Positions 3,598 to 20,169 are shown, numbered from the stretch's first letter. The stretch is DNA of 40,250 nucleotides from Candidatus Korobacteraceae bacterium (GCA_049519515.1 JBEKQR010000001.1:1-40250); one strand, 5' to 3'. The notes: generated from the letters alone by a model not told the origin. Numbers and translations are program-made.

Positions 3598-4552
3598 GCG
3601 GCGGCATCAGCAGGGTGAGCGCGCGCGGCACGATGGCAATCTCAGCCGGCATGCCGTTCAGCACCTCTCCATCCGCCTGCGCCCGAATGCCGGCCGTGGA
3701 AACGCCGGCCAGGGCGCGACAACGAACGCACAGCGCCCGGGTGAACTCGACGGTTGGCGGCTGTCCTGCCGAGTCCGGCGCGGCCCCGCGCACGATGGCC
3801 GAAACCGCGTAACGAAACAGCGCCCAGCGGCTGCACGGCTTCACCGTGACCAGTTGCAGGTAATCGCGGTCCAGCGCTCCCCCCGGACGCCAGCGGCTCA
3901 GCCACTTGCCGAACGAACGCACGCGCATGGCCACCACTTCCAGCACCTGCTCGCAGCGCACCGAGCCGTCCGGCAGCACGATCTCGACAGCGAAGGGAAC
4001 AAACTGGTGCAGGAAGATCCGCGAAAACCCGGCAATATAGTATGTGGCAAACCCGCCATGCTGCTTGCTGCGCGCGCTGGCGTCGTAGATCAGCCCGGCA
4101 TGAGCGCCAATTCCCGCGGCCACCGAAAAATAGGTCGGTTGCCCGCCTGGCCAGCCGAGTTGCCCGGCGGCCACGCGGCGCGGCGCGTAGCTTAGCACCG
4201 CGCGGGCCGCGGCTTGCACGTCCATGGGAAGCCCCAGATCGTTGGCCAGAACGTTGGCTGTTCCCAGGGGCAGGACGCCCAGGGCGACTTGTTCCGGGCC
4301 GTGCACCATGCCTTGCAGCACGTCGTAAACCGTGCCATCGCCGCCGCAGGCAAAGATGGCGTCGAAGCCGCGGGCCATGGCCGCCCGGGCTTGCTTCCCT
4401 CCCTCTCCGGCGGCGCGGGTGGCTTCGAGCTCGACCTCGACGCCGGCGGAACGAAAGACCTGGGCCGCGGCCAGCAGCGCGGCTTCCTGCCTGCGGTGCG
4501 CGCGGCCCGCCATTGGGTTATACAGCAGCAGTGCTTGGCGAAAGGATGGCAT
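3581..4552 (-). CDS. diacylglycerol/lipid kinase family protein (YegS/BmrU type)
   Basis: Motifs LLYNPMAGR, FACGGDGTV and GVLPLGTANVLA of the DAGK catalytic domain. Start overlaps the mogA stop (TGATG). Confidence 0.8.
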   Translation of the reverse strand: MPSFRQALLLYNPMAGRAHRRQEAALLAAAQVFRSAGVEVELEATRAAGEGGKQARAAMARGFDAIFACGGDGTVYDVLQGMVHGPEQVALGVLPLGTANVLANDLGLPMDVQAAARAVLSYAPRRVAAGQLGWPGGQPTYFSVAAGIGAHAGLIYDASARSKQHGGFATYYIAGFSRIFLHQFVPFAVEIVLPDGSVRCEQVLEVVAMRVRSFGKWLSRWRPGGALDRDYLQLVTVKPCSRWALFRYAVSAIVRGAAPDSAGQPPTVEFTRALCVRCRALAGVSTAGIRAQADGEVLNGMPAEIAIVPRALTLLMPPPGGRE

Positions 4553-5031
4553 CAGGCGGAGTGCGCGGTATGGCCGCGCAGCAAGTCGAGGGCATGCGGC
4601 AATAGGCCAAAAACGGCGGAGAGAGATTCGACCGCCCCCTTGGGACTGCCGGGCACGTTCAGGATCAGCGAGCGTCCGCGAATGCCGCAGAGCCCGCGGC
4701 TCAGGGCGGCAAGCGGGGTTTTCTTCGCGCCCTCGGCGCGCATGCGCTCGGAGACGCCCTCGACCAGGCGCGTGCAGACGCCGCGCGTAGCCTCGGGCGT
4801 AACGTCGCGGGCGGCGATCCCCGTGCCTCCCGTGGTCACCACCAGTTCGGCGGTAGCGCAGTGCCGGATCAGCATCGCCTGGATCTGCTCGACCTCATCG
4901 GGCACTATCTCCACGGCCACGACCTGGAAGCCATTAGCCTCCAGGAACTGCCGCAGCGCCGGGCCGCTCGAATCCACGCTCTCGCCGCGCGAGCAGCGAT
5001 CGCTAACGGTGATCACCGCTGCCTTAGGCAT
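4552..5031 (-). CDS. mogA: molybdopterin adenylyltransferase, MogA/MoaB family
   Basis: 159 aa. AAVITVSDR..., VVTTGGTGIAARDVTPEA and NVPGSPKGA are typical MoCF-biosynthesis (MogA) motifs. Confidence 0.8.
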   Translation of the reverse strand: MPKAAVITVSDRCSRGESVDSSGPALRQFLEANGFQVVAVEIVPDEVEQIQAMLIRHCATAELVVTTGGTGIAARDVTPEATRGVCTRLVEGVSERMRAEGAKKTPLAALSRGLCGIRGRSLILNVPGSPKGAVESLSAVFGLLPHALDLLRGHTAHSA

Positions 5032-5037
5032 AAATGT

Positions 5038-5532
5038 TTATTTGCTCCGCCTCGGCTGCTTTCGCGACCCGCGCTTATAAGAGCCGCTTTTGCCGCCCGT
5101 CTTGCTCTCCAGGACAACTTCACGGATTTCGATCCCCTTATCCAAAGCTTTGCACATGTCGTAAACCGTCAGGGCGGCGACGGACGCCGCCGTCATGGCT
5201 TCCATCTCTACCCCGGTCACGGCGGTGGTGCTGGCCGAAGCGCGAATGCGGACGCCATTCTCGCACAGCTCGATATCGACGGCAACGTGGGAGAGCGGAA
5301 TCGGATGGCACATCGGCACCAGCTCCGAGGTGCGCTTGGCGGCCATGATTCCCGCCACCCGCGCTACCTCCAGGGGATCGCCCTTGGGATTGCGCGGCAG
5401 GGCCGCCAGCACATCAGGACTCATGCGGACCATGGCCGTGGCTACTGCCGTGCGCTTGCTGGCCGTCTTGCCGGAGACATCCACCATGCGCGCGCGTCCG
5501 CGGTTATCGTAATGGGAGAGCTTCTGCGCCAT
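5038..5532 (-). CDS. moaC: cyclic pyranopterin monophosphate synthase MoaC
   Basis: From the internal ATG at 5532: [22 protein letters not shown]...[11 protein letters not shown]...[24 protein letters not shown], the canonical MoaC sequence. The upstream 119 codons of the ORF-track ORF are low-complexity and not MoaC-like. Confidence 0.85.
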
Positions 5533-5771
5533 GCAAACAGTTTCAAGTTTCGAGTCAAGAGTTTCAAGTTGAAAAAATAATTTCCGATTGGCAGCCTGGA
5601 GCCGTGAAGCCCGAGAACTGCCCCATCTATGACGCAGATCGGCGTTGTCAAGCTGGTTTTTGTCTGCGCCACGATCAATTTTGGGAACACGACGACGCCC
5701 GAGCCGAGAACTGCTTTTTCTCTTCCCCAGCGTTTTTGTTTTTGTCTTTCGTCGCTGCCGACCAAGGCTCG

Positions 5772-5933
5772 CGTCTCTAATCGTTACGATGGAACCACCC
5801 GGTTCCACCAGCCATCTATTCGATCCCGCAAGGGGACCATGATTAACCGATCCGAACTCCCGCCCAGTGACGGGAGGCAGGGTGCTCAATCACTACAATC
5901 GAGGATCAACTTCACCCCAGTGGGGCAGTCGGC
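5772..5933 (-). ncRNA. candidate IS110-family bridge/seek RNA (3' non-coding tail of the IS)
   Basis: About 160 nt between the transposase stop and the inner edge of the IR, with no plausible ORF and dense with hairpins. Examples: TGGAACC-N4-GGTTCCA at 5790-5807, CTCCCG-N8-CGGGAG at 5857-5876, CCCC-N3-GGGG at 5915-5925. Confidence 0.35.
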
Positions 5934-6953
5934 TTACCCTGCATGCGAACCGGACCCGAACATGGCCCCATAATCGAGTCCGCGAATCCACATCCACCAC
6001 AAGCGCACCGCCAGCTTGCGCGCCACCGCTATGGTGGCAATCTGCCGATTCTTCTTCATGGCCAGGCGCCGCCAGCAGCGCCCCAACTCCGGCTCGTGCC
6101 GTACCGCAATGTGGGCCGCCTCGGCCAGCAAGCCCCGCAACAGGGCGTTACCTTGCTTGCTGATTCGCCCTAGCCGTTGCTTGCCGCCACTGCTCGCCTC
6201 CTGGGGAATCAACCCCAGATAACTGGCCAGGTGCCGGCCAGAGGCAAAGCGCTGTGGATCCCCAATGGTCAGCACGAACGTCAGCGCCGTCACTTCGCCT
6301 ACTCCCGGATGAGTCATCAACCGCTGCACTTGCTCCCCGGCCGCCTGATCCCTGACCGCCTGGTCCAGCGGTCGGCCCAGTTCGCACAGTTGATCGTGCA
6401 ACTGCAGCAACTCCTGTCGCCGCCGTCCTGCCCAGGGCAGTAGCGGCAGCGCCTGCAACTCGGCCCGCCCCGCCCGACTCCACAGCTTCTTCTTCTGACA
6501 CAGCCCCTGGTTCATCGCCAGCGCCTGCAACTGGTTCTTTACCCGGGTGCGCATCTGCACCAGCCGATGCCGATGCAGCACCAGTTGCCGCAAGTCCCGT
6601 TCCACCAAGCTCGGCCGCCACACCCGCGGAAAACGCTCCTCCCACAACAGCTTCAGAATGTGCTCAGCATCGCGGCTGTCGGTCTTCTGCTTGCGTACCA
6701 TCTGGGCACGAATCTCGGCCGGATCCCCGGTCCATAACTCGTGCCCCAGTTCTCCCAGCAGCCGCTCGAACCACAAGCTCTGCCCGCTGGCCTCTATGCC
6801 TACTCGTACCCTTTGGCCCACCAGACGGCGATAAAACCGTTCTGCCTCCCCGTCGGCGTGCTCCAGACGAGCCGTGCCATACTCGCCTGTATCGCTGTTG
6901 ACAAAAGCAATTTGCTGAAACCTCGGGTGGTAATCACAGCCTATAATCCACAT
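5934..6953 (-). CDS. IS110-family DEDD transposase/recombinase
   Basis: 339 aa. N-terminal MWIIGCDYH...VGIEASG...D segment (RuvC-like DEDD). C-terminal HPGVGEVTALTF...LASYLGLIPQEASSGGKQRLGRISKQGNALLR segment (Transposase_20-like). GGAGGAAGG precedes the ATG. Confidence 0.9.
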   Translation of the reverse strand: MWIIGCDYHPRFQQIAFVNSDTGEYGTARLEHADGEAERFYRRLVGQRVRVGIEASGQSLWFERLLGELGHELWTGDPAEIRAQMVRKQKTDSRDAEHILKLLWEERFPRVWRPSLVERDLRQLVLHRHRLVQMRTRVKNQLQALAMNQGLCQKKKLWSRAGRAELQALPLLPWAGRRRQELLQLHDQLCELGRPLDQAVRDQAAGEQVQRLMTHPGVGEVTALTFVLTIGDPQRFASGRHLASYLGLIPQEASSGGKQRLGRISKQGNALLRGLLAEAAHIAVRHEPELGRCWRRLAMKKNRQIATIAVARKLAVRLWWMWIRGLDYGAMFGSGSHAG

Positions 6954-8096: not shown

Positions 8097-8216
8097 TCAG
8101 GCTCTCTCCCATCTTTAGTCTTTGGCTTGGTATTCTCCAGCGGTATCGCTCAGGCAAGTATATGGAAACAGTGGGGGCCAATATACCACAAGCTTCCGCG
8201 ACCGCACGCCGCAACC

Positions 8217-8292
8217 TGCTCCTGAGCGGCTCTGCAGGAGACGCGAAGCACCCTCATATAGTCACTACGCTTCGCACCGTGTCGAGTTTCCT
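8217..8292. repeat. partial copy of repeat family B (left half only)
   Basis: TGCTCCTGAGCGGCTCTGCAGGAGACGCGAAGCACCCTCAT...GAGTTTCCT aligns at roughly 80% with 18504-18579. Confidence 0.6.
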
Positions 8293-8304
8293 GGGGGAGC
8301 TGAT

Positions 8305-8440
8305 TAGGGCTTGTTTCAAAAACATTCCTTGGGGAGTAAGGCGTATTCCCTCAGGGGCTAAAGCCCGCATTTTTATTGGCTCTGGACGGCGCGGCTGAAG
8401 CCGCGCCCCTTCAAAGCACTATTTTTTGAAACAAGCTCTA
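8305..8440. repeat. MITE-like structured repeat, family A, short variant (copy 1)
   Basis: Terminal inverted repeats TAGGGCTTGTTTCAAAAA / TTTTTGAAACAAGCTCTA. Internal hairpin GGCGCGGC-tgaa-GCCGCGCC (8388-8407). Homologous to 21214-21392 and 29276-29454. Confidence 0.8.
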
Positions 8441-8577
8441 AAGTCGTGCCCTGATACAAGACGGCCACACTAATTCCTAATCAGCTCTAATCCTCAACTG
8501 CTCTAACAGGCAAAAATACAGGGAAGTTTGCCGGACTCGGCCCGTCCAGCTCCAACCGAGGCTGCGCAATTTTAAGC

Positions 8578-8600
8578 GGCGAATGCAAAAAGCATTCGCC
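8578..8600 (-). terminator. rho-independent terminator ending the redox/two-component operon
   Basis: GGCGAATGC-aaaaa-GCATTCGCC, a perfect 9-bp stem 7 nt after the response-regulator stop (8607). On the minus strand it is followed by GCTTAAAATT. Confidence 0.6.
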
Positions 8601-8606
8601 GGCGAA

Positions 8607-9011
8607 TCAAGAGACCAGTGTCCTGGCGCCTATCAGCTCATTGATTTTTGCCAGCAGTTGCTCCCGGTCCGGTGGCTTATCGAAGTAGCCTTCGGGCGGC
8701 GGAACCTGACGGCGGGTTTCGATGAATTTCTTGAAGTCATGAGAAACGCCGGTCAGCATGACCACCGGAATGGTAGCGGTTTGCGGGTCGCCACGCAGGT
8801 TGCGGTACATGCGCACGCCGCTCTCTTCCGGCATGCTGATGTCCAGCAGGATGAGGTCCGGACGCCGGGCCTTGGCCTGTGAGAACCCCTCTTTGCCGTT
8901 CTCGGCGCAGATTACGGCAAAGCCGTTGTCTTCCAGCAAGGTCCTGATGAAGGTGAGGACGTCGGCTTCGTCGTCTACGACCAGTATGGTTTTTGTGCTC
9001 TTGTCAGTCAT
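8607..9011 (-). CDS. single-domain response regulator (CheY-like receiver)
   Basis: From ATG 9011 (GAGGTG SD): MTDKSTKTILVVDDEADV...PDLILLDISMPEESG...PVVMLTG...K, the receiver-domain acidic pocket, phospho-Asp and conserved Lys pattern. No output domain. Confidence 0.85.
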   Translation of the reverse strand: MTDKSTKTILVVDDEADVLTFIRTLLEDNGFAVICAENGKEGFSQAKARRPDLILLDISMPEESGVRMYRNLRGDPQTATIPVVMLTGVSHDFKKFIETRRQVPPPEGYFDKPPDREQLLAKINELIGARTLVS

Positions 9012-9021
9012 GGTGATCACC

Positions 9022-9531
9022 TCATTTCTTCTTAAGGGCGTCCAGCGCGCGCTGTAGACTTTCACGGTCGGCGCCGGACAAAGCAGCGGCAACCTGCTGA
9101 CGAAGTTGATCCGGGGCGGCCGGCTCCGCGCTTTCGGGCTCCATTCCCAACAGCGTGCGCACGGCCGCCACGTAGGAGCCGGGCCGCACGGGTTTTTCCA
9201 GATAAACGCCGGGGCCGGACATGGTCATCTCGTTAAAGTCCGCCTTGCCCAGTTCATCGCGGGCATGTCCGGTGACGATCAGGACGGGAATCTTCGACAG
9301 CCGCTTGTCTTTCTGCAGATCGCGATAGAACTTGGCGCCGGAATGGCCGGGCATGACCAGGTCCAGGGAGATCAGGTCAGGCGCCTGCTGCCTGACCGAC
9401 GTCAGGGCCTGCAGACCATCGCAGGCGGTCGTCACCTGAAACCCGGAGTCCTCCAGGGCAGTCTTCAGATAGACGCGCACATCATCCTCATCGTCCACGA
9501 TCAGAATTCGTTTTTGTGTAGAGTCGCTCAT
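9022..9531 (-). CDS. single-domain response regulator with short C-terminal tail
   Basis: KRILIVDDEDDV...PDLISLDLVMPGHSG...PVLIVTGH...EKP receiver motifs. ATGA overlap with the kinase stop. Confidence 0.85.
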   Translation of the reverse strand: MSDSTQKRILIVDDEDDVRVYLKTALEDSGFQVTTACDGLQALTSVRQQAPDLISLDLVMPGHSGAKFYRDLQKDKRLSKIPVLIVTGHARDELGKADFNEMTMSGPGVYLEKPVRPGSYVAAVRTLLGMEPESAEPAAPDQLRQQVAAALSGADRESLQRALDALKKK

Positions 9532-11408
9532 TGTTTCACCGTTCCTGCCGGCTCTCTCGCGCCGGCAAGCTCGTCATCCGTGTTTGCCGGGGGCCCTGGC
9601 TGGCGGGCCGAGGCCTGCGCAATTGCCTGCAGACGCTGGCGCGACAGCCTTATGCGGAAGGTCGATCCCTGGCCCGGAGTGGACTCGACATCGATTGTTC
9701 CGCCGTGTTCCTGCACGACCTTGTGCGTGGTGAGCAGCCCGAGCCCGGTGCCCTTGCCGCCCTTGGTGGTGAAGAATGTGGTAAAAACTTTGCCTTTCAC
9801 TTCCCAGTCCATGCCGCCGCCATTGTCGATGACTTCGAAGATCAGCTCGTCGTCTTGATCGCGCGTGCGCAGCAGGACCTTGCCATCCCGCTTCGGGCGC
9901 ATGGCCGCCGCATCGATGGCGTTGGAGATCAGGTTGGTGACGCAGATCTCAATCCCTTGCGGATCAAGCAGCGCCGGCTTCGCCTGCGCCTGCGGCTCGC
10001 AGCGCAACTCCACGCCCTGCATGCGCGCAGCCTCAATGTAGAGGTTGACGATGTCTTGTGCAAGCGCGTTGGGGTCGGTGGGACGCAGCTCGGGCGTCCG
10101 CCCTTTGGCGAAGGCGAGGAAGTCCTTTACCAGCGAGGTCATTTTTCCAAAGTTGCGCTGCAGCATCTCCCAGCCGGTCGTAAGGCGGGTGGCGTCAGAG
10201 CGGTGAAGCCCGCTGTCGACCATGTACATGCCGCCTTCGAGTCCGGTGAGCAGGTTCTTGATGGAATGCGCCACTCCGGCCACGGTCTGCCCGACTGTCG
10301 CCAGGCGTTCGGCGTCCAGCTTCTCCTGCTCCAGGCGTTTGATCTCGCGCAGGTCTTGCATGAAGGCCGCCCGCCCGAGTTGGCGCCGTCCGCTTTTCAG
10401 CTCGACTGCCGAGAAGCTCACCGGAATTTTCTGCTGCTGCGCCGATTCGAGGTAAGCCTCGGGCAGCTCCAGCCCTTCCACCTGGCCCGTGGGGGCGGAG
10501 AAAAACTGCTCCGGCAACATCTGCTTGAGCCGCGCCGCGGTGGGCGACTGCCCGGCTGTCCATTGCAGCAGAAGGCGCGCTGCCGGGTTAATCACCCTGG
10601 GCTCGCCGTCGGCATCTACCGCGATGATTCCCGCCGGAGAGTTGCGAATCAGCGCCTCGAAGAAATCGTGCGTGTTCCTCAACTGGCGCTCGAGGGCGTA
10701 GACGTCTGTCACGTCGGTCGCTACCTGCATGACGTGCCGCACGCCGTCCTGGCCGCGCGACAATGGAGTGCTGGTCACCAAATAATATGCCGGCGATCCG
10801 TCCTTGTGAAAACCCACTTCGCTGGAGGAGTGCTCGGCGCCGTCGCTGAACGCCAGGCGGGCGGTGCAACTCCGGCAGGGGCCGCGGCGCCGCTTACACG
10901 TCTCATAGCAGTACCGGCCGCGCGGCTCGCCAAAAATCTCGCGAAACTTCTTGTTCTCGCGCACGATGCGGAATTCACGGTCGACAACGAAGATGGGACA
11001 AGGCACGTGTTCGAATAACAGGTCGTACTCGCGCTGCCAAGAGCGCGGCTCGGTCAAATCGGTCGCCATTGCCATGAGGTAGGTAATGGCGCCGCTGTCG
11101 TCCCGCACAGGTGCGAAGTGCACCGCGAACCGGCATGTACGTCCGTGCCGGTCGACCCCGGTCTGCTCTATTACGCGCACGCGTCCGTCCTGGAACGCGG
11201 CCTTCGCCGGACATCCCTCGCAAGCCTCCGAGGCCCGCTTGTAAACTTCATAGCAGCGGCGATTACGCCACTCGCCGAAGTACTCCTCGAAATGCCGGTT
11301 GGCCGCCGCGATGTTGAGTTCGCGATCTATCACGGCCACACTGAACGGAACCTGCTGAAACATCCCCAGCTTCAGTTCATCCAGAACGGGTTGTGGCAAT
11401 TGCGACAT
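9528..11408 (-). CDS. soluble multi-PAS sensor histidine kinase with Cys-rich PAS modules
   Basis: No TM segment. Three PAS-like modules, two with Cys clusters (CYEVYKRASEACEGC; CYETCKRRRGPCRSC). H-box VAGVAHSIKNLL. ATPase N/G boxes NLISNAIDA, DNGGGM, GKGTGLGL. Confidence 0.85.
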   Translation of the reverse strand: MSQLPQPVLDELKLGMFQQVPFSVAVIDRELNIAAANRHFEEYFGEWRNRRCYEVYKRASEACEGCPAKAAFQDGRVRVIEQTGVDRHGRTCRFAVHFAPVRDDSGAITYLMAMATDLTEPRSWQREYDLLFEHVPCPIFVVDREFRIVRENKKFREIFGEPRGRYCYETCKRRRGPCRSCTARLAFSDGAEHSSSEVGFHKDGSPAYYLVTSTPLSRGQDGVRHVMQVATDVTDVYALERQLRNTHDFFEALIRNSPAGIIAVDADGEPRVINPAARLLLQWTAGQSPTAARLKQMLPEQFFSAPTGQVEGLELPEAYLESAQQQKIPVSFSAVELKSGRRQLGRAAFMQDLREIKRLEQEKLDAERLATVGQTVAGVAHSIKNLLTGLEGGMYMVDSGLHRSDATRLTTGWEMLQRNFGKMTSLVKDFLAFAKGRTPELRPTDPNALAQDIVNLYIEAARMQGVELRCEPQAQAKPALLDPQGIEICVTNLISNAIDAAAMRPKRDGKVLLRTRDQDDELIFEVIDNGGGMDWEVKGKVFTTFFTTKGGKGTGLGLLTTHKVVQEHGGTIDVESTPGQGSTFRIRLSRQRLQAIAQASARQPGPPANTDDELAGAREPAGTVKQ

Positions 11409-11414
11409 AGTCTC

Positions 11415-13328
11415 TTATCGATTGGGCGCGGGCGCGGGCGCGGCCGGCGGCAGCACGACGTTTTGCGCAAACAATCCATGGCGGCGCAGGATGATCTCGC
11501 GCGAATCGATCACCTCTCGCCGCTCCTTGTGGCACCAGCCGCAGCGCGTCATCTCGGGTTTGTTCTTCTCCTGCGCCTTCTGCAGGTGGCAGCCGAGGCA
11601 AAGACGATGCATCGCCTCGGTGTAAGCGACGGCGCGGTACTGCTTGATTTTGATCGTAGCGCCCGCCGGAACGAGATCATTGTGACACTTATCGCAGGCG
11701 ATGGCGCTCTTGGCGGTGCGTACCTCGCCCCTTCGATGGCATTGGTAGCAGGCCACGCGTCCCCCGGCGGATGATGCGTGCCAATCGTGGCGGAAGGCAT
11801 CGGCGGGCAGGTACATGTCGCTGTGGCAGCGGGCGCACGCCGTGTTCTTGTCGCGCGGGAAATTCATGTGATGGCACTTTATGCACCCGGGGCCCCCGGC
11901 AAGCGCCGTGGTTGCGCTTGCTGGGGTGGAGGACTGCTTGTCGCCTTCGCGCTTTACGTGCTCCTCGTGCTTGAAGGAGACGCCAAAACCGTCCAGGTTG
12001 CCGTCGATGAACAGGACCTCGCCGCCGCGCGCCCGATGGACGGGCGTGGGCTCGATCCCGCGGCTTTCAGCCGGCTGAACCTTTAACAGTCCGAAGCCTA
12101 AAGCGGCCGGCAAGATGAACGCCAGCGAAAAAATCGTGCGCGCCGCCACTCCAGGCACTCCCAGCCAGGTGCTGCCCACCGGGTCAAACTCGGGCAGCTT
12201 CAGGGAATCGGCGCTGGAGTCGGCAGGCCGCTGCTCCCAGATCTTGAAGCGCTCGATGATGAACAGGAACACCAGCCCCATGGCCGCGACCACGCCCAGC
12301 GTGATGGCAATCTCGGTCCACGATGGCAGATAGAAAGCGCCCTCCGGACGGAGATGAGCGACGCCGCCCACGTCGATGCGATTGAGCACGATCCCGAAGA
12401 CGGCCAGCGCCGCCGCCGTGAACTGCCCAGCCTGCGCGCGCCGCATACGCTCGATTGAAAACAGCGTGATCGGAATGCCGGCCATGACCAGCACTTCGAA
12501 CCAGAACCATCCAGTGCGCCATTGTGGCGCCGCCAGCTGCGCCGCCTGGCCGCGCACGATCAGGTCGGCGAAGCGCACCACCAGATAAATGGACAATACC
12601 CACCTGGCCGCCTTGGCGAAGGACGAAAGCAGCCCGGTTTCCGGTTGGCGGCGGTAAAGGTAGGCGGTGATGTGGCTTTCCACCATCACCATCGAGAGCC
12701 CGAGGGCGATCGCCGAGATCAGGAACAGCAGCGGCAGGATGGGCGAATACCACAAGGGGTGCAGCCGGTACGGCATGATCAGGAACAGCGAGCCGAGCGA
12801 GGACTGGTGCAGCGTGGACAGACCGATGCCCGCGATCACCAGCGGCAGGCGGAACTTGATCAGGACAGCGCGAATTCCGGCCAGCCGCGGGAACTCCTCC
12901 GCCGGCACCGGCAGGAACTCCAGGCACAGAACAGTCAGGTAGAGCATCACGCACCAGCCGACCTCGAACAGGGCCGAGTGCGGATTCCAGAAGACCATCA
13001 TGTGCCAGATGTTCCAGGGCAGGCCGAGATCGAAGAGCAGCGAAACCGCGACTGCGATGTAGCCTAGAAACGCCGTCAGCACTGCCGGGCGCACTACCTC
13101 GTGGAAACGCTCCAGCTTGAAGATGTAAACCGTGGCGGTGACGATGAAGCCGCCGGCGGCCAGCGCCACCCCGCCCATTACGTCGAAGCCGACCCACAGT
13201 CCCCAGGGATTGGCGTCGGACAAGTTGGTGGTGGCACCCAAGCCGAAGAGAAAGCGCGCGGCGGCCACCGATGCGGCCAGGCCGGCCAGCATCCAAAGCG
13301 CAAGTTTCAGCCTCCGCACCCTATTCAT
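11415..13328 (-). CDS. NrfD/HmcC/DsrP-like polytopic membrane protein fused to a C-terminal six-heme c-type cytochrome domain
   Basis: About 10-11 hydrophobic helices in aa 1-430, with an NLSDANPWGLWVGFDV... NrfD-type start. The C-terminal ~180 aa carry six CxxCH motifs (CIKCH, CARCH, CYQCH, CDKCH, CLGCH, CGWCH). Confidence 0.8.
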   Translation of the reverse strand: MNRVRRLKLALWMLAGLAASVAAARFLFGLGATTNLSDANPWGLWVGFDVMGGVALAAGGFIVTATVYIFKLERFHEVVRPAVLTAFLGYIAVAVSLLFDLGLPWNIWHMMVFWNPHSALFEVGWCVMLYLTVLCLEFLPVPAEEFPRLAGIRAVLIKFRLPLVIAGIGLSTLHQSSLGSLFLIMPYRLHPLWYSPILPLLFLISAIALGLSMVMVESHITAYLYRRQPETGLLSSFAKAARWVLSIYLVVRFADLIVRGQAAQLAAPQWRTGWFWFEVLVMAGIPITLFSIERMRRAQAGQFTAAALAVFGIVLNRIDVGGVAHLRPEGAFYLPSWTEIAITLGVVAAMGLVFLFIIERFKIWEQRPADSSADSLKLPEFDPVGSTWLGVPGVAARTIFSLAFILPAALGFGLLKVQPAESRGIEPTPVHRARGGEVLFIDGNLDGFGVSFKHEEHVKREGDKQSSTPASATTALAGGPGCIKCHHMNFPRDKNTACARCHSDMYLPADAFRHDWHASSAGGRVACYQCHRRGEVRTAKSAIACDKCHNDLVPAGATIKIKQYRAVAYTEAMHRLCLGCHLQKAQEKNKPEMTRCGWCHKERREVIDSREIILRRHGLFAQNVVLPPAAPAPAPNR

Positions 13329-14199
13329 TGGACCCTTCCTTTTCCAGGGGTTCCCGCGAAGCGCCGTCGTTGCGCTTCGTGGGGTCGAGTTTCATGCGCC
13401 GTTCGATCACCCAAGTGACTCCCGCGCAAAGCGCCACTACGCCGGTAAAGGCGAAGGGCACCGCGCCCATCGCCACCTTGGTTGTCGCCGGTAGCGGCGC
13501 GCTGCCAATCGTCCGGCCTTCGTTCAGGAACGAGAGATTGACGTTGGAGATATAGAGCACGGAAGTTCCGCCGGCTTCGCGCTCGCCGACAATTTCGTGG
13601 AGATAGAAATCCGGCTTGGCGGCGATGCGGCTGCGGGCTTCGGCCAGCAACTCATCGCGATCGCCGAAAATGGTCGCCTTGGTCGGACAGGCCTCCGTGC
13701 ACGCCGGCTGGCGGCCCGCGACCACCCCAGCAGACGCGGCGTCTGCCGGGGACCCCGGGGCAGTGATGCGGTCGTAGCACAGGATGCACTTGCGCACATA
13801 AGGGACCGAAGCCTGCCATTCGTAGCGGGGGATTCCATAGGGGCAGGCCATCATGCAGTAGCGGCAGCCCATGCACTTGGCGCTGTCGTAGACCACCGCG
13901 CCAATGCTGGTCTTGTGCAGAGCGCCGACCGGGCAGGCGGAGGCGCAGGCCGGCTCCAGGCAGTGGCGGCACTGCTTGCGCACCTGCGCGGAGGTTCCCG
14001 CAAGGCCCTGCTGCTGCCCGTTCTGGGGCGGTTGCTGCGGCCCTTCAACTATAGAGGTCCAATTCCGGGAAGACAGACCATCATTGGCGTCCCAGCGACG
14101 AGGCAGATCGCCAGCGAGGTTGTTGGCCTTCTTGCAGGCGACGACACACTCGTAGCAGCCAATGCACTTGGTAGTATCGGTCAGAATCGCGGCCTTCAT
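13321..14199 (-). CDS. 4x[4Fe-4S] ferredoxin-type subunit (DsrO/HmcB/NrfC-like) with C-terminal TM anchor
   Basis: Cluster motifs CIGCYECVVAC, CRHCLEPACASACP, CMGCRYCMMACP and CILC...CTEACP. Hydrophobic C-terminal helix GAVPFAFTGVVALCAGVTWVI. No twin-arginine signal visible. Confidence 0.8.
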   Translation of the reverse strand: MKAAILTDTTKCIGCYECVVACKKANNLAGDLPRRWDANDGLSSRNWTSIVEGPQQPPQNGQQQGLAGTSAQVRKQCRHCLEPACASACPVGALHKTSIGAVVYDSAKCMGCRYCMMACPYGIPRYEWQASVPYVRKCILCYDRITAPGSPADAASAGVVAGRQPACTEACPTKATIFGDRDELLAEARSRIAAKPDFYLHEIVGEREAGGTSVLYISNVNLSFLNEGRTIGSAPLPATTKVAMGAVPFAFTGVVALCAGVTWVIERRMKLDPTKRNDGASREPLEKEGSNE

Positions 14200-14999
14200 T
14201 TCTTCACCTCCTCGGGCACCCCGGCAGGCGCCGATTTAGCGCCTGCTGGGACGGTGACGGAGGGTGCGCCAGCTCCAAGCCTTGCCCCTTTCAGCCAGTT
14301 GGGCCGGTCGGCGTAGCCCAGGGTGGCGGCGACCAGGTCGCCCGCGCCCGCGGGAAACTTCCAGGCGACGGCCGTTACCAGTTGCGAGAACGGCGCCAGA
14401 ACACAATGGGCAATCTTGGTGAACGGAATGAGCAGCATAATAAGGTTAGCGGAGTAAACGTGAACGAGCATCATCGTCTCGTACGCCTTGGGCCTAATGG
14501 CGAGATTCGAGCAGATGAATCCGGTCAGGAAAGGCGTAACCAGCAGCAGCGGCCAGGCGTAATCCTGCTTGCGGCTCAAGCGGCGCGATGCCCTGTCGAA
14601 CAGCCGGCTTAAGAACAAACCCAGCCCGGCCACGATCGCCAGGCAGGTTAGGTAGTCCGCCAGGCGCTGAGGAATGGCGGGCCAGGCAAATCCGGCGGAG
14701 CGCCTCCACAGCAGCGTGTGCGCGGCCAGAAACGGCGGGACCAGCAGCAGGCCGGCGTGGAAGAGAATCGAGACCGTGCTGTATGCCGGCCGCTCGTGCC
14801 AAAAACGGTTGATCGGAACCAGCCAGCCGAACGTCTGCCGGCGAACGGCGCGCCAGTTGACGATCTTGTCCGGATTGCGCCGGTAGGCCTCGACAACCCC
14901 AACGATGGTAAGAACCACGCTGCGCAGCAGCCCCAGCAGCATCAGCGCAAACGCCAGGCGGAAAAGAGGACCGCGGCCGAACTGTATCCAGGTTTCCAC
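14196..14999 (-). CDS. NarI/DsrM/HmcE-like integral membrane (putative di-heme b) subunit
   Basis: 267 aa, about 5-6 TM, with conserved-looking His residues in helices (FHAGLL, AAHTLLW, KIAHCV). GTG start overlaps the upstream stop (TAGTG). ATGA overlap with the downstream gene. Confidence 0.65.
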   Translation of the reverse strand: METWIQFGRGPLFRLAFALMLLGLLRSVVLTIVGVVEAYRRNPDKIVNWRAVRRQTFGWLVPINRFWHERPAYSTVSILFHAGLLLVPPFLAAHTLLWRRSAGFAWPAIPQRLADYLTCLAIVAGLGLFLSRLFDRASRRLSRKQDYAWPLLLVTPFLTGFICSNLAIRPKAYETMMLVHVYSANLIMLLIPFTKIAHCVLAPFSQLVTAVAWKFPAGAGDLVAATLGYADRPNWLKGARLGAGAPSVTVPAGAKSAPAGVPEEVKK

Positions 15000-16423
15000 T
15001 AGCTCTCCTTTGCCTGGTCGAACTCTATGGCCTTGTAAAGCAGGTCATGCAGCCCGACGATCTGACAGTCGATGCCGTGTTCTTCCATCAGTTCGCGCAG
15101 TTGCTTTTTGCAGTTGGCGCACGGCGCCACGCAATACTTGGCCCCGGTGGCCTTGATCTGCTCGGCTTTTGCCCGGCCCCCGACAAGCATGCGGTAAGGT
15201 TTGATCTCGTCAATCGAGACCGTGCCGCCGCCCCCGCCGCAGCAGATGTTGTCGCGCCGGTTGGGCGTCATCTCGACGTAGTCGCTGCAGATCGCCTTCA
15301 GCAGCTCGCGCGGCTGCTCCACGATCCAGCCGGTGCGGACGTAATTGCACGGGTCATGGTAGGTGACGCGCTCGGTGATGGCGTTGGCCTTGAGCTTGAG
15401 ACGGCCTTCGCGCCACGCCTTGTGGGCGTACTCCATGATGTTGATCACCGGCTCGGCCTGCTTGCCGCCACAGAAGGTCGGATAGAAGAACTTGGCGGTG
15501 CGGGAAGCGTGACCGCACTCGCCGATCAGGATCTTCCTGGCGCGCAGGCGTTTCACCTCCGCCTGCATCTTGTTCAGCACGCGCTCCAGAATCTGGTCGT
15601 TGTAAAACAGCCCGTAGTTGATGCCGTCGAAGTATCCGGTGCCGACCGTCCAACTGTCGCCGGTGGCGCGCAGCACGGCCGCATTGCCCATAAGGGTCTC
15701 GGCCTCCATGATGTAGTCGGAGACGGCGGGGAAGAAGATGTACTCCGCCTCCTCCTGATCAACGGGAATGGTGGCGTCGACGCCGATACCTTCCTTTATC
15801 TCTTCGCTGATGAACTCCAGGGTGTCCACCAGCGCGGCCGTGGGCACAGCGGAGGTGTTGCCGCTGGCGCCGCTCAACTGCTCGCGGACACTCACCACCA
15901 AAGCGCGGGGCGCAATGCCGATCTCCGAGAGGATGTACCGGCCCAAATGTGTGATCAGGGCGTGGTCGATTCCCATCGGGCACTCGAAATGGCAGCGGCG
16001 GCAGGCGGTGCAGTTGTAAAAGGCCTCCGCCATCTCCTGGAGCGCCTCGTCGGTCAGCCCAGGGTCTCCCAGAAGGCGGGCACGCAGCGAGCCCGACAGG
16101 GTGAAGTGTCGCCGGTATACCGACAGCAGCAGCTCCGAGCGGCGGCAGGGGAGATCTTGCGGGTCGCCGGTGGCCAGGTAAACCTGGCACTTTGCGGTAC
16201 ATCGTCCGCACTTGGCGCTGACCCGGACATAATGGTCCAAGGCCAGACGGTAGTTCGTATGCTTCAAAATGGTGGCAAATGCCTGCAGGAACCGCCGTGG
16301 CCTGTTTTCCACGTCGAAATCTTCCACGTGATACCGGACCGGCAGGCGCTGTTTGCGGATCACATCCGGCTTTTTGGCCGAATGAAACGCCTTGTCACGT
16401 TCTTCTCTGGTGAGGAGTTCCAT
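14999..16423 (-). CDS. HdrD/DsrK/HmcF-like Fe-S protein with CCG domain
   Basis: From ATG 16423 (MELLTREERDK). Ferredoxin motifs CGRCTAKC and CTACRRCHFECP. C-terminal Cys-rich CCG-type motifs (DNICCGGGGG; CVAPCANC). The 37 upstream codons of the ORF-track ORF lie in AT-rich promoter DNA. Confidence 0.8.
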   Translation of the reverse strand: MELLTREERDKAFHSAKKPDVIRKQRLPVRYHVEDFDVENRPRRFLQAFATILKHTNYRLALDHYVRVSAKCGRCTAKCQVYLATGDPQDLPCRRSELLLSVYRRHFTLSGSLRARLLGDPGLTDEALQEMAEAFYNCTACRRCHFECPMGIDHALITHLGRYILSEIGIAPRALVVSVREQLSGASGNTSAVPTAALVDTLEFISEEIKEGIGVDATIPVDQEEAEYIFFPAVSDYIMEAETLMGNAAVLRATGDSWTVGTGYFDGINYGLFYNDQILERVLNKMQAEVKRLRARKILIGECGHASRTAKFFYPTFCGGKQAEPVINIMEYAHKAWREGRLKLKANAITERVTYHDPCNYVRTGWIVEQPRELLKAICSDYVEMTPNRRDNICCGGGGGTVSIDEIKPYRMLVGGRAKAEQIKATGAKYCVAPCANCKKQLRELMEEHGIDCQIVGLHDLLYKAIEFDQAKES

Positions 16424-16485
16424 AGGACCCCAAACATCTAGATGTAATTTGTTCCTAATTGTACTGACAGAATAGCTGTAGAGGC

Positions 16486-16513
16486 AGAATAGCAACTCGC
16501 GATCATTTTGCAA
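16486..16513 (-). promoter_or_regulatory. candidate sigma70-type promoter of the redox operon
   Basis: Minus strand reads TTGCAA-N16-TATTCT, about 60 nt upstream of ATG 16423, in the only AT-rich stretch of the region. Consensus match only. Confidence 0.25.
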
Positions 16514-16779
16514 GAAAAAAATTACAACCAGCACAAGTTGTTGAATAAAAAGAGTCAGAGCTTAAGCCGCGACCAGAGCCGAACGGCAAAAAGGTGCCTG
16601 GATTGGCAGCGTCCATGAATCTGTAGTTACTTTACGCAAAAATTTTCACGCGTATTATTGATTTATCAGTTAACAACGCACCCTCGCGCGAACGAAAGCA
16701 GATCGAGAGCAATTGACAGTGAAGCCGGTAACTGGCACCATCTCCCTTCCAGCTCTATGGAATGCGCTAGGAGATTCAA

Positions 16780-17685
16780 GTGACCATCAGGCAAATCAGC
16801 GTGATAGTGATCGTCTTTTTGCTGGCGGTGGCGGGCATGGCGAACGCGGCGCCCCCGCAACCTGCCGCGCAAATACTGGTGCAGACAAACTGGCTGGCCG
16901 CGCACCTCAAAGACCCGGCGATTGTCATTCTGCACGTAGGCGGGAACAAGACTTCTTATGATGCGGAACACATCCCCGGGGCGCAATTCCTGCCGCTGAG
17001 CGCCGTGGCTGTCGCCCGTAACGGCATTCCCAACCAACTGCCAACCGTGGCCGCCCTGAAGGCCGCCTTCGAACAGGCGGGGGTGAGCGACAAATCCCAG
17101 GTCGTGCTCTACGGCGACATGATCGGTCTGTTTGCCGCGCGCGCCTATTTCGCCCTCGATTACTTGGGGCATGGCCGGCGCGCCGCCCTGCTTGACGGCG
17201 GCCTGGAAAAATGGAAGGCGGAGCACCGCGATCTGAGCACAGCCGCCGCCACACCCAAGGCCGGCAATTTGAACGTGAAGCCCCATCCGGAGCTTATCGC
17301 CGATTTGGCTGCCATGAAGCAGATTGTCGCCAGCAAGCAAGCGACGTTGATTGATGCCCGTCCGCCGGCCGAGTATTCCGGCGCGCAAGCCAGTGAAGGC
17401 GTGCCGCGCGCCGGACATATCCCCGGCGCCAAGAACGTCTTTTGGATGGATAACCTGGCGAGCAAATACAACCCGGTCCTCAAGCCGGTGGCGGAGATGC
17501 AGGCGAAGTACGCGGCAGCGGGCGTGAAACGCGGCAGGAAAGTGGTTGTCTACTGCCGCACCGGGGTGCAGGCCGCGCACGACTACTTTACCCTAAAGCT
17601 GCTCGGGTTCAGTCCCGTCCTGTACGAAGGATCGTTCTTCGAGTGGAGCAACGCCCCGGGAACAGCGGTCGAGACGGGGCCATAG
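16780..17685 (+). CDS. periplasmic tandem-rhodanese sulfurtransferase (thiosulfate/3-mercaptopyruvate sulfurtransferase family)
   Basis: GTG start with an AGGAGA SD. Signal peptide ISVIVIVFLLAVAGMANA-AP. Two rhodanese-like halves. Active-site loop VVVYCRTGVQAAH in the C-terminal half. Confidence 0.8.
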   Translation: MTIRQISVIVIVFLLAVAGMANAAPPQPAAQILVQTNWLAAHLKDPAIVILHVGGNKTSYDAEHIPGAQFLPLSAVAVARNGIPNQLPTVAALKAAFEQAGVSDKSQVVLYGDMIGLFAARAYFALDYLGHGRRAALLDGGLEKWKAEHRDLSTAAATPKAGNLNVKPHPELIADLAAMKQIVASKQATLIDARPPAEYSGAQASEGVPRAGHIPGAKNVFWMDNLASKYNPVLKPVAEMQAKYAAAGVKRGRKVVVYCRTGVQAAHDYFTLKLLGFSPVLYEGSFFEWSNAPGTAVETGP

Positions 17686-17879: not shown

Positions 17880-18296
17880 TCAGGCAGCCTTTGGGGTTAT
17901 GCTCGCCGTGCAAAACGCACACTTGTGTGCCCCCACCGGAATTTCGCTGAGGCACTCCGGACATTGCCTCTTGGTGGGATCAGGTGGCCCTTCACCGCGC
18001 TTCTTGTAAGCCATGAATGCGTTCATCGGCACAATCACGAAGAAGTAAACAGCGAAAGCGATCAGCAGGAATGAGACCAGCGAATTGATGAAGTCGCCGT
18101 ACATGAACCTGCTGCCGTTCAGTTCCGCGTACAAGCCAGAGAAATCCGGCTTGCCCAATATCGCGGCGATGAGGGGCGTGAGCAGGTCTTTGACAAAGGC
18201 TGCCACTACCGCTCCGAACGCGGCCCCGATAACGACAGCGACGGCGAGGTCAATGACGTTTCCCCGAAAAATAAATTCCTTAAATCCTTTCAACAT
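17880..18296 (-). CDS. mscL: large-conductance mechanosensitive channel MscL with C-terminal CxxC...CxxC extension
   Basis: MLKGFKEFIFRGNVIDLAVAVVIGAAFG...KDLLTPLI is the canonical MscL N-terminus and TM1. The tail is RQCPECLSEIPVGAHKCAFCT. GGAGG SD lies 6 nt upstream. Confidence 0.9.
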   Translation of the reverse strand: MLKGFKEFIFRGNVIDLAVAVVIGAAFGAVVAAFVKDLLTPLIAAILGKPDFSGLYAELNGSRFMYGDFINSLVSFLLIAFAVYFFVIVPMNAFMAYKKRGEGPPDPTKRQCPECLSEIPVGAHKCAFCTASITPKAA

Positions 18297-19068: not shown

Positions 19069-20169
19069 GTGGCAATGCGTCAAGCGACTCGACAATTGAT
19101 GTGCGCAGTCTGGCTCATCCTGGCCGGCGCTCTCGTTTGCGGCGCACAACTGCTGCCCGACGTTACCCCTGAACCAAAGCCGCAACCCAAACCTTCCGCC
19201 AGCCTGTTGGTTACCACCGATTTGGATTGCAACTGGAAGCTGGATGGCGTGTCGCAAGGGCAGCTGAAGGCCGACAGCGCGAAGACCGTGCGACTGTCGC
19301 CCGGCAAGCACCTGGTTCAGGCCTTCTCCAACGATCGGCAAGATAAATGGCAGGCCTTTGTCACCGTTGGACAATCGGGGCAGGAGGGATTGCAGATTCT
19401 CCTGTCCAGCGTGCGGCAAGCAAGGCTGGAGAAGGAACAGGAGGAAGCTGCCGAGCGCAGGCTGGCAGAAGGGCGCAGGCGTGAAGCAGAGCGCATCGGC
19501 AAGTGGGAGTTTGTGAGAATACCAGCCGGCGAGTTCGATATGGGCTGCTCGCCCGGCGATCGCGAGTGTTATGACGACGAGAAGCCGCAGCATCATGTCC
19601 GTATCAGAACAAGTTTTGAGATCGGCAAGTACCTGGTCACGCAGACAATGTGGAAGTCGGTGATGGGCAGCAATCCCAGCCGCTTCAAGGGGCCTGGCCT
19701 TCCGGTAGAAACGGTCAGTTGGAATGATGTGCAGGAGTTCTTGCAACGGCTAAACACCAGGAATGATGGTTACCATTACCGGCTGCCCACGGAGGCGGAG
19801 TGGGAGTATGCGGCGCGGGCGGGCAGCATGCCGGTTCGTTACGGGAACCTGGATGCAATTGCCTGGTACTGGGGCAACTCGGGCAAGGAAACGCATCCGG
19901 TGGGGCAGATGCAGCCGAATGCCTGGGGACTGTATGACATGCTGGGCAACGTGTGGGAGTGGGTGCAGGACTGGTACGATCAGAATTTCTACCAACACTC
20001 GCCGGACACCGATCCACAGGGGCCTTCCACGGGGCAGCACCGCGTGCTGCGGGGCAATTCCTGGGACAGCGGGTCAGGGGGCGTCCGTGTTTCCGTTCGC
20101 GGCTGGGACGAACCGGATGATCGCAACTACGGCAGCGGGTTCCGTTGCGTCCGGGAAGTTGCTGACTGA
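19069..20169 (+). CDS. formylglycine-generating-enzyme (SUMF1/FGE) family protein with N-terminal signal/anchor, beta-sandwich and coiled segment
   Basis: C-terminal 230 aa carry FGE-sulfatase-domain motifs: IPAGEFDMG, KPQHHVRI, YLVTQTMW, RLPTEAEWEYAARAG, GLYDMLGNVWEWVQDW, RVLRGNSW, GFRCV. Confidence 0.8.
   Translation: MAMRQATRQLMCAVWLILAGALVCGAQLLPDVTPEPKPQPKPSASLLVTTDLDCNWKLDGVSQGQLKADSAKTVRLSPGKHLVQAFSNDRQDKWQAFVTVGQSGQEGLQILLSSVRQARLEKEQEEAAERRLAEGRRREAERIGKWEFVRIPAGEFDMGCSPGDRECYDDEKPQHHVRIRTSFEIGKYLVTQTMWKSVMGSNPSRFKGPGLPVETVSWNDVQEFLQRLNTRNDGYHYRLPTEAEWEYAARAGSMPVRYGNLDAIAWYWGNSGKETHPVGQMQPNAWGLYDMLGNVWEWVQDWYDQNFYQHSPDTDPQGPSTGQHRVLRGNSWDSGSGGVRVSVRGWDEPDDRNYGSGFRCVREVAD

Follow-up and report, generated by a model that had tools for sequence, protein, structure and literature searches.

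A redox module related to the Hmc, Tmc and DsrMKJOP complexes and its adjoining two-component system in a Candidatus Korobacteraceae genome

The 40,250-nucleotide (nt) stretch of DNA analyzed in this work (hereafter, the window) originates from Candidatus Korobacteraceae bacterium (GCA_049519515.1 JBEKQR010000001.1:1-40250) and contains seven open reading frames (ORFs) that fill positions 8607-16423 of the minus strand in the order F, E, B, C, HK, RR1 and RR2. The first four encode redox proteins whose membership in the class of transmembrane electron-transfer complexes represented by Hmc, Tmc and DsrMKJOP is close to certain, and the other three encode a histidine kinase and two receivers. 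The initial annotation of this DNA had described an operon, followed by one terminator, that combines an Hmc/DsrMKJOP-like redox module lacking any catalytic partner with a two-component system of its own to which the module is hard-wired. All seven minus-strand genes were found where that annotation had placed them, and its domain assignments agree with the results of Pfam and NCBIfam searches. The features of the operon, with protein lengths in amino acids (aa), are as follows:

14999-16423, minus strand: F, 474 aa; HdrD/DsrK/HmcF-like iron-sulfur subunit, cytoplasmic
14196-14999, minus strand: E, 267 aa, GTG start; NarI/HmcE/TmcC-like membrane cytochrome b
13321-14199, minus strand: B, 292 aa; HmcB/HybA-like ferredoxin with four cubane sites and a C-terminal membrane anchor
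11415-13328, minus strand: C, 637 aa; NrfD-type subunit with an eleventh helix and a six-haem domain
12219-13328, minus strand: N-terminal part of C; HmcC/HybB-type NrfD, ten helices, N-terminus cytoplasmic
12078-12134, minus strand: eleventh membrane helix of C (aa 399-417), which returns the chain to the periplasm; conserved in the alignment
11415-12077, minus strand: C-terminal domain of C; periplasmic six-haem class III (c3-type) cytochrome
9528-11408, minus strand: HK, 626 aa; soluble histidine kinase
9022-9531, minus strand: RR1, 169 aa; stand-alone receiver with a helical C-terminal tail of about 45 aa
8607-9011, minus strand: RR2, 134 aa; stand-alone receiver
8577-8601, minus strand: hairpin with a 10-bp perfect stem and a 5-nt loop, 5 nt past the RR2 stop codon

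From F to RR2, the successive junctions are TAGTG (a 1-nt overlap), ATGA, ATGAATAG (an 8-nt overlap), a 6-nt gap, ATGA and a 10-nt gap, which reproduces exactly the overlapping or nearly abutting arrangement first described. The third-position GC content of 0.74-0.83 marks all seven frames as coding. In the independent annotation of identical contigs in four metagenomes by the Joint Genome Institute (JGI), every gene except C has the same length as here, RR2 included. For C, the JGI start lies 12 codons later and yields 625 aa; since residues 1-12 of C are conserved in homologs, the longer, overlapping start is preferred. The occurrence of the same arrangement in four independent metagenomes excludes an assembly artefact. 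As for the single terminator, a hairpin indeed follows the last stop codon and folds at -18.5 kcal/mol (z = -1.75); it is terminator-like and lacks a U-tract, and a scan for sigma-70 promoter and terminator consensus sequences revealed nothing convincing for the operon.

The identity of each subunit was judged by Pfam hits and by the equivalog cut-offs of NCBIfam models. For conservation and gene neighbourhoods, a scan of one genome per species gave 333 species-level relatives, of which the best 80 loci, from metagenome-assembled genomes (MAGs), formed the analysis set; the ORFs of these loci were clustered, and representatives were profiled with NCBIfam and Pfam. The top relative by kinase identity (L083, 81%) was left out, as its F is only 310 aa long and its B and C are each split in two, probably because of assembly indels.

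Protein F has no membrane helix and combines two [4Fe-4S] sites with one CCG domain (Pfam CCG, Fer4_8 and Fer4_17). Its top NCBIfam model is DsrK (290.7 bits, cut-off 400), followed by TmcB (210.4, cut-off 735) and HmcF (206.3, cut-off 750), and a sequence search of PDB gave only a weak match, 9ojn. In 65 homologs, cysteines C72/75/79/93, C138/141/144/148 and C359...C394C395...C435xxC438 are invariant, and the CCG domain, whose motif is intact and invariant, is a putative thiol/disulfide catalytic site. Protein E is recognized by the Pfam family Nitrate_red_gam (24.5 bits) and by the HmcE (120.9 bits, cut-off 275) and TmcC (113.9, cut-off 240) models, with no hit to DsrM. Three of its histidines (H81, H94 and H180) are found in all 74 homologs compared and a fourth, H198, in 96% of them; as judged from the alignment, these four would be enough to ligate two haems b.

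Protein C is a fusion. Its NrfD part scores 321.4 bits with HmcC (cut-off 550), 291.6 with HybB (cut-off 450) and 29.1 with DsrP (cut-off 350), and the first ten of its eleven hydrophobic segments align to the HybB and HmcC profiles. According to the positive-inside count (16 Lys and Arg residues on the inner loops vs. 6 on the outer loops), the N-terminus is cytoplasmic and the haem domain periplasmic, as the attachment of c-type haem requires. In ten-helix NrfD proteins of this standard orientation, the ferredoxin partner docks on the periplasmic side (PMC8076601). The haem domain carries six invariant CxxCH motifs, starting at C482, C498, C527, C545, C577 and C596, and the further invariant residues H454, H487, H514, H517, H574, M488 and M505. 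It matches the Pfam families Cytochrom_CIII, c3_2 and C7, and its best and sole sequence match in PDB is the basic cytochrome c3 (2bq4). The AlphaFold model of this domain (mean predicted local distance difference test score, pLDDT, of 53.5) was too poor for a fold search. In the window, C also contains a low-complexity insertion rich in Q, P, G, A and S (aa 467-481) that is absent in nearly all homologs.

Protein B is a ferredoxin of the Pfam family Fer4_11 that scores 217.6 bits with HmcB (cut-off 420), 199.1 with HybA (cut-off 263) and 85.6 with DsrO (cut-off 200), and its 16 invariant cysteines are enough for four clusters. Two insertions of the same low-complexity type (aa 56-69 and 147-160), likewise missing from nearly all homologs, account for its length of 292 aa in the window vs. 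the usual 250 aa. Near its C-terminus, a helix (residues 247-265) is followed by a conserved RRMK motif, and in homologs the mean number of Lys and Arg residues is 4.2 after this helix vs. 1.2 before it; both features correspond to the topology of the Tat (twin-arginine translocation)-inserted, tail-anchored ferredoxins HybA and HmcB. The N-terminus of B, MKAAILTDTTKC, leads directly into the first cluster motif, which lies only 11 residues ahead, and neither B of the window nor any of the 62 full-length homologs listed has a Tat signal or another type of signal peptide. B must be periplasmic and yet has no export signal, and this is the only feature that backs the earlier intuition of a missing partner. 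The sole published parallel that we found is a signal-less C-tail ferredoxin paired with a HybB protein, for which hitchhiking has been proposed on an FeFe hydrogenase that has a Tat signal and is encoded immediately upstream (bioRxiv 10.1101/2023.11.02.564894). Within 10 kb of the core in the 80 loci, proteins with a Tat signal occurred as sporadic singletons, and none was conserved.

The kinase HK has no membrane helix and consists of tandem N-terminal PAS domains, a third, weaker PAS domain, an H-box and a HATPase_c domain (83.5 bits). The phospho-acceptor box AHxIKN with His381 is invariant. Each of the first two PAS domains possesses one Cx10CxxC triad, C52/C63/C66 (with H97) and C167/C178/C181, respectively; both triads and H97 are shared without exception by 35 homologs and by the 34 sequences of an alignment of database homologs. 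In the AlphaFold2 model of residues 1-245 (pLDDT 86.6), two canonical PAS folds hold these triads in the E-alpha/F-alpha region, and the top Foldseek matches are DosP, NifL, LOV-HK, MmoS and FixL; a sequence search of PDB with the same PAS region gave no match. In these top-match proteins, the E-alpha/F-alpha side of the sensor holds haem, flavin or flavin mononucleotide (FMN). The cysteine triads of HK probably hold a redox-sensitive metal or Fe-S centre.

Response_reg, matched over its full length, is the sole Pfam domain of both receivers, and among the NCBIfam models the DVU0259 family fits them best (89.4 bits for RR1 and 90.8 for RR2, cut-off 160); the namesake of this family belongs to DVU0258-0260, which we take to adjoin the tmc genes in D. 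vulgaris. In RR1, the acidic pocket and the T and K residues can be recognized in the sequence, as can the phospho-acceptor Asp within SLDLVMP. The hallmarks of phosphorylation are therefore present on both sides (the His box and ATPase of HK and the receiver domains), and a DNA-binding output domain is absent from both receivers, so that the system alone cannot be a transcriptional switch. Of the proposed hard-wiring, the location of the regulators in the same tightly packed transcription unit stands. It is more likely that the system signals from or alongside the complex than that it switches the complex on; it would report the cytoplasmic redox state by phosphotransfer and protein-protein interaction. 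The presence of regulators inside a respiratory operon, which had been regarded as unusual, has precedents in regulators that adjoin such operons: rrf1/rrf2, located after hmc, and a response regulator gene beside the hmc cluster of Solidesulfovibrio.

F is separated by a 356-nt spacer from a divergently transcribed rhodanese gene, and the following two features belong to this upstream region:

16434-16445, strand not assigned: palindrome ACATCTAGATGT, 12 bp, perfect, 10 nt 5' of the F start codon; candidate operator
16780-17685, plus strand: tandem rhodanese, 301 aa, divergent; Sec signal and two Pfam Rhodanese domains

The palindrome was detected by k-mer comparison only; the repeat tool saw no inverted repeats in the F-rhodanese spacer. 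Allowing for at most two mismatches, it occurs upstream of F in 13 of 67 relatives vs. a maximum of 4-7 in shuffled sequences, and in the relatives it is often preceded by a TAGAyGCA half-site. Most, not all, of the palindrome-bearing loci have a divergent PadR-like gene upstream of F. A tblastn search found no PadR-like gene in the window, where the adjacent gene was lost or never present. The palindrome is a better candidate for the point of transcriptional control than the two-component system, and another factor probably acts there. A sigma-54 promoter upstream of F was also considered and rejected: there is no TGGCAC-N5-TTGC in 16424-16779, and matches over the whole window are below chance. 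The rhodanese has a Sec signal peptide and the active-site loop CRTGVQA. Its ortholog follows RR2 directly on the operon strand in the closest relatives (L003, L004, L005, L006, L007 and L009); this is a local rearrangement with the linkage kept, the gene being divergent and upstream in the window and downstream in these relatives.

Homologs of the fused C protein number in the thousands, with 55-77% identity. The best 80 belong to Acidobacteriota (Korobacteraceae, Bryobacteraceae, Solibacteraceae, Ca. Sulfopaludibacter and Acidiferrales), Calditrichota, LCP-89, Zixibacteria and one MAG named 'delta proteobacterium'. The closest relatives are Korobacteraceae from peat, the family in which NCBI places Ca. 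Sulfotelmatobacter, a dsrAB-carrying peat acidobacterium. The order F-E-B-C is kept in essentially all 80 loci. Adjacency of the two-component system could be scored in 74 of them, and it is present in about 40, with the kinase and receivers located after C in 37 loci and before F in three (L051, L058 and L078). Among the approximately 40 loci with the system, both receivers are encoded in 34, only one in 3 and none in 3, where the contig ends. The seven-gene order is thus conserved in relatives, and the possibility that it is peculiar to this genome, raised with the initial annotation, does not hold.

Three genomic contexts of the core were distinguished. In the context resembling that of the window, a divergent PadR-like gene is followed by F-E-B-C, the kinase and two receivers, and in the nearest relatives the rhodanese gene comes next. 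In the second context, which usually lacks the kinase and receivers, the core is embedded in dissimilatory sulfur clusters. For instance, it comes after dsrT-dsrMKJOP-(86-aa ORF)-dsrN or after dsrN ... sat, or it stands ahead of sat, TauE permeases and genes resembling CysG-N/CobA; two loci of this context (L012 and L055) have dsrA, dsrB, dsrL and dsrC directly upstream in divergent orientation. The third context comprises hybrids and other phyla: L031 is a hybrid with dsrL-dsrC-dsrT-dsrMKJOP, F-E-B-C, the kinase and the receivers, in this order, whereas elsewhere the set of F-E-B-C, kinase and receivers is headed by an NtrC-type regulator gene and a NifX-like gene.

Several recurrent genes accompany these contexts. 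The conserved 86-aa ORF has no Pfam or NCBIfam match and always adjoins dsrN (L011, L015, L022, L024, L039 and others); by position, it is probably dsrD. Seven loci (L057, L058, L062-L064, L066 and L078) share a downstream block of sat, several TauE/SafE permeases, DUF1634, Cytidylate_kin2-like genes and CysG-N- and CobA-like genes, the last two recognized by eye. In five loci from non-acidobacterial phyla and unclassified MAGs (L038, L073, L079, L080 and L081), the gene upstream of F encodes a 264-aa protein that combines a NifX/NifB-like Nitro_FeMo-Co domain with a C-terminal half rich in cysteine. An NtrC-type regulator, assigned by motifs and not by a family library, precedes this gene in L038, L073, L079 and L081; the L080 locus is truncated right before this point. 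A strict search for sigma-54 promoters upstream of the NifX-like gene in these other phyla gave no match.

Counting genes as adjacent when located within 10 kb of the F-E-B-C core, 32 of the 80 loci contain one or more bona fide dsr or sat genes; dsrAB, dsrC, dsrMKJOP, dsrN or sat were found across these loci. The assignments are supported by scores above the NCBIfam cut-offs (given in parentheses) for DsrA, 581 bits (393), DsrB, 516-525 (341.5), DsrC, 120 (53.5), DsrM, 518 (300), DsrP, 465 (350), DsrJ, 141 (100), and Sat, 472 (387). The DsrA, DsrB and DsrC values are those of L012 and L055. The other neighbours include DsrN-like, DsrL-like and DsrT-like (Pfam RsbRD_N) genes and TauE sulfite exporters, as well as CysG-N/CobA-like genes assigned by eye with no family search. 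Association with dsr/sat genes and association with the two-component system are nearly mutually exclusive: both occur in 5 loci, the system only in 36, dsr/sat only in 27 and neither in 12 (Fisher P = 2e-7, a value that ignores shared ancestry).

Published expression data are available for one relative. The MAG CO124 represents an acidobacterium that switches between oxygen respiration and sulfate reduction, as studied by genome-centric transcriptomics (PMC10564751). Its contig NODE_7_length_92532 is locus L048 of our set, and genes 670-673 (1428, 765, 753 and 1842 nt) have exactly the lengths of F, E, B and C in L048, which identifies the corresponding table rows as the ortholog. These genes were silent under oxic conditions, with 0-1.2 reads per kilobase per million mapped reads, and expressed under anoxic, sulfate-reducing conditions, with 1-7.6 (PMC10564751 Supplementary Data 2). 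The log2 fold values for F, E, B and C are -5.9, -5.4, -5.3 and -4.1 (adjusted P of 1.6e-7, 1.6e-4, 1.7e-4 and 1.8e-12), and the same table gives -6.0 for dsrP, -4.7 for dsrO, -6.3 for sat and -5.8 for aprA (PMC10564751). Thus, the CO124 ortholog is co-induced with the sulfate-reduction pathway under anoxia, and these published data provide the transcription measurement that the initial annotation had proposed. The CO124 authors filed the ortholog as "Hyb", and JGI labels C as HybB/HydB.

The four redox proteins are related to components of Hmc, Tmc, DsrMKJOP and HybAB, and each scores below every NCBIfam equivalog cut-off. Profile searches of the individual subunits (closest to HmcF/DsrK, HmcE/TmcC, HmcB/HybA and HmcC/HybB, respectively) bear out the description of the module as Hmc/DsrMKJOP-like. 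In composition, the module resembles the D. vulgaris complex HmcABCDEF, of which the subunit types HmcF, HmcE, HmcB and HmcC are the best or near-best models; a periplasmic multihaem c-type cytochrome is likewise the entry point, and the regulators rrf1/rrf2 follow the hmc operon. Unlike Hmc, the module has no separate 16-haem HmcA (a 23.5-bit local hit, cut-off 400), and its six-haem domain is fused to C. HmcD is also absent, and the overlapping or abutting junctions leave no space for such an ORF between the genes. Further differences are the gene order (F-E-B-C vs. A-B-C-D-E-F), the absence of a Tat signal from B, the missed equivalog cut-offs and the occurrence in Acidobacteriota and other non-Desulfovibrio phyla.

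The plan of DsrMKJOP is the same, with K corresponding to F, M to E, O to B, and P together with J to C and its fused cytochrome, although the parts themselves are Hmc-like; a CCG subunit facing the cytoplasm and a dihaem cytochrome b are present in both, and DsrMKJOP and F-E-B-C are physical neighbours in at least 12 related genomes. F-E-B-C is nevertheless a separate paralog. Bona fide DsrMKJOP proteins above the cut-offs are encoded in the same loci, F is 30-34% identical to the neighbouring DsrK proteins, the window proteins have no DsrM or DsrJ hit and stay below the DsrK, DsrO and DsrP cut-offs, and six fused haems replace the three on the separate DsrJ. With TmcABCD, the module shares an HdrD-like subunit (TmcB), a cytochrome b (TmcC), a small c3-type cytochrome and the same proposed role (PMC4215793). 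The DVU0259 family, the best model for both receivers, is another likeness to the Tmc system. In contrast to the module, Tmc has no ferredoxin and NrfD pair; TmcD was not found here, and TmcB, TmcC and the receivers are below their cut-offs. Finally, B and C are homologs of HybA and HybB of E. coli hydrogenase 2, including the C-tail anchor, and resemble the FeFe-hydrogenase-linked ferredoxin and HybB pair in that B also lacks a signal peptide. Unlike these pairs, they lack HybO/HybC-type partners and invariably occur together with an HdrD-like subunit, a cytochrome b and a fused cytochrome c. Neither the window nor the 80 loci revealed a recurrent family of hydrogenase-like genes.

Hmc and Tmc are reported to move electrons through the membrane from periplasmic cytochrome c3; DsrC or ferredoxin is the suggested acceptor and the assumed substrate of the cytoplasmic HdrD-like subunit of these complexes (PMC4215793). 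Operons for Hmc and Tmc never encode a dedicated oxidoreductase, and the HdrD/DsrK-like subunit itself would be the catalytic site; the missing partner is therefore no anomaly for this class. Of the earlier claim, the absence of such an enzyme from the window is confirmed, whereas its significance is not, given that the core lies near dsr/sat genes in relatives. The module is orphaned only locally, since relatives hold the core beside sulfite-reductase genes, and of the earlier picture as a whole the type of module and its coupling to a sensor are retained, while its description as an orphan is abandoned.

We propose that F-E-B-C is an accessory electron conduit of dissimilatory sulfite/sulfate metabolism with an HdrD/DsrK-type end site, and we assign this interpretation a probability of about 0.6. 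Structurally, it is a compact form of a complex of the Hmc/Tmc/DsrMKJOP class for which we found no description: our literature search revealed no paper naming the F-E-B-C complex or any Hmc/Tmc-like complex in Acidobacteriota. The 'dsrM2K2' genes or the four 'syntenic genes' shown in grey by Hausmann et al. 2018 may correspond to this module, although the order there is N-M2-K2 vs. F then E here. In the proposed mechanism, the periplasmic six-haem domain of C would exchange electrons with the four-cluster ferredoxin B, from which they would pass either to the quinone pool via C or to the dihaem cytochrome b E and across the membrane. F would receive them, and its CCG-bound cluster would reduce, or in the reverse direction oxidize, a thiol/disulfide carrier; the flow would run from the periplasm to the cytoplasm or in reverse. 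The carrier would most likely be the DsrC trisulfide; genomic linkage to dsrC and co-expression were observed. In the lineage of the window, the module would have left the dsr gene cluster and would now be co-transcribed with the tandem-PAS kinase, presumably a sensor of a redox signal, and the two output-less receivers.

Several observations weigh against this interpretation. The 40,250-nt window contains no dsr, apr, sat or hydrogenase gene and no molybdopterin subunit. The function is carried over from relatives at approximately 30% identity, with no subunit reaching the equivalog level, so that it is predicted rather than assigned. The expression data come from an ortholog that is 65-78% identical to the window proteins and has no two-component system. 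In addition, the signal-less B hints at a hidden Tat-exported partner, and the clade-linked periplasmic rhodanese could point to a periplasmic sulfur substrate instead.

The signal-less ferredoxin is the starting point of one alternative, according to which the module supplies the membrane and electron-transfer part for an enzyme that is encoded elsewhere and exported to the periplasm by the Tat system, for example a hydrogenase, formate dehydrogenase or molybdoenzyme; B would hitchhike on that enzyme, and the complex would feed the electrons of the enzyme to quinone and F. We consider this unlikely, even though B and C score nearly as well against HybA (199) and HybB (292) as against HmcB and HmcC, and B, which lacks a signal peptide in the window and the homologs examined, has the C-tail and RRMK arrangement typical of Tat-anchored proteins of the periplasm. 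Hitchhiking on an FeFe hydrogenase has a published precedent (bioRxiv 10.1101/2023.11.02.564894), and the HybB/HydB labels given by JGI and the CO124 authors point the same way. The neighbourhoods argue otherwise, as no formate dehydrogenase, molybdopterin or recurrent hydrogenase-like gene and no conserved Tat-signal protein was found within 10 kb in the 80 loci, and the constant partners are the HdrD-like subunit, the cytochrome b and the fused cytochrome c. Such an enzyme would also be compatible with the sulfur-linked conduit, to which it would add a donor.

A sulfur-independent conduit for respiration or redox balancing (metal, humic or extracellular electron transfer, or oxygen defence), similar to the quinol oxidoreductases of the multihaem/NrfD/cytochrome b type and tuned to the redox state by the two-component system, appears about as improbable. 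It would suit the lack of dsr/sat genes within 10 kb in the window and 36 other system-bearing loci, the many multihaem cytochrome clusters of Acidobacteriota (PMC8528874) and the finding that Hmc of Desulfovibrio alaskensis mattered for oxygen survival and not for growth on hydrogen (PMC4215793). It is hard to reconcile with an HdrD/DsrK-type CCG subunit that is always present and has DsrK as its best model, with the same core inside dsr/sat clusters in 32 species, with the induction of the ortholog together with dsr genes and with a taxonomic range that overlaps lineages reported to have dsrAB, such as Acidobacteria and Zixibacteria (PMC6018805). Still less probable is a scheme in which the six-haem domain is a reductase or oxidase of sulfane sulfur (thiosulfate, polysulfide or tetrathionate) from the rhodanese, and F only balances electrons. 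The Sec-exported tandem rhodanese with a loop of the thiosulfate-sulfurtransferase type, CRTGVQA, does adjoin the operon in two arrangements within the clade, and octahaem cytochromes of the tetrathionate-reductase type partner pairs of a C-tail ferredoxin and a HybB-like protein. This link, however, is confined to the closest relatives (6 of the 80 loci and the window's own population), and all six haem motifs are ordinary CxxCH, with five His and two Met residues that could be distal ligands and no obvious open catalytic haem.

A bolder suggestion, which we regard as possible but tentative, is that F-E-B-C represents an unnamed, widespread fifth type of Dsr-associated membrane complex beside DsrMKJOP, Qmo, Hmc/Tmc and Qrc, distributed over Acidobacteriota, Zixibacteria, Calditrichota and LCP-89 and characterized by an NrfD-fused six-haem cytochrome, a Tat-less periplasmic ferredoxin and two genomic states. 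In that case, B would need to be exported by an unrecognized partner or route, and the signal-less periplasmic ferredoxin raises a question of protein export. In one state, the module would be embedded among dsr/sat genes; in the other, it would stand alone with two output-less receivers and a kinase of its own, whose Cys triads would be ligands of a metal or Fe-S centre. This would suggest that regulation was re-invented on leaving the dsr regulon; the kinase with its PAS Cys triads is a candidate redox sensor. The dsrAB-bearing Acidobacteriota are abundant in peat and soil, where they presumably drive a hidden sulfur cycle and thereby suppress methane production, and the electron route to their sulfite reductase is poorly known. 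Reading the module as an Hmc/DsrMKJOP-type conduit, not as "Hyb/HydB", would alter models of their energy metabolism and improve the marker set.

The surroundings of the operon contain several additional features. Downstream, a 510-nt non-coding gap (8097-8606) separates RR2 from a 3-hydroxyisobutyrate dehydrogenase-like gene, and near 8385-8412 this gap includes a GC-rich stem, GGGGCGCGGC...GCCGCGCC, with no Rfam match; Rfam and tRNA scans of the window for non-coding RNAs gave no hits. An IS110-family transposase (DEDD_Tnp_IS110 and Transposase_20; 5934-6953, minus strand) is encoded two genes downstream of the operon and is followed by two molybdenum-cofactor genes, one with a MoaC domain (5038-5889) and one with a MoCF_biosynth domain of the MoaB/MogA type (4552-5031). 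On the other side, beyond the rhodanese gene, lie an MscL gene (17880-18296, minus strand) and a gene for a protein with an FGE-sulfatase (formylglycine-generating enzyme) domain (19069-20169, plus strand), and both of these neighbours recur in the matching JGI contigs.

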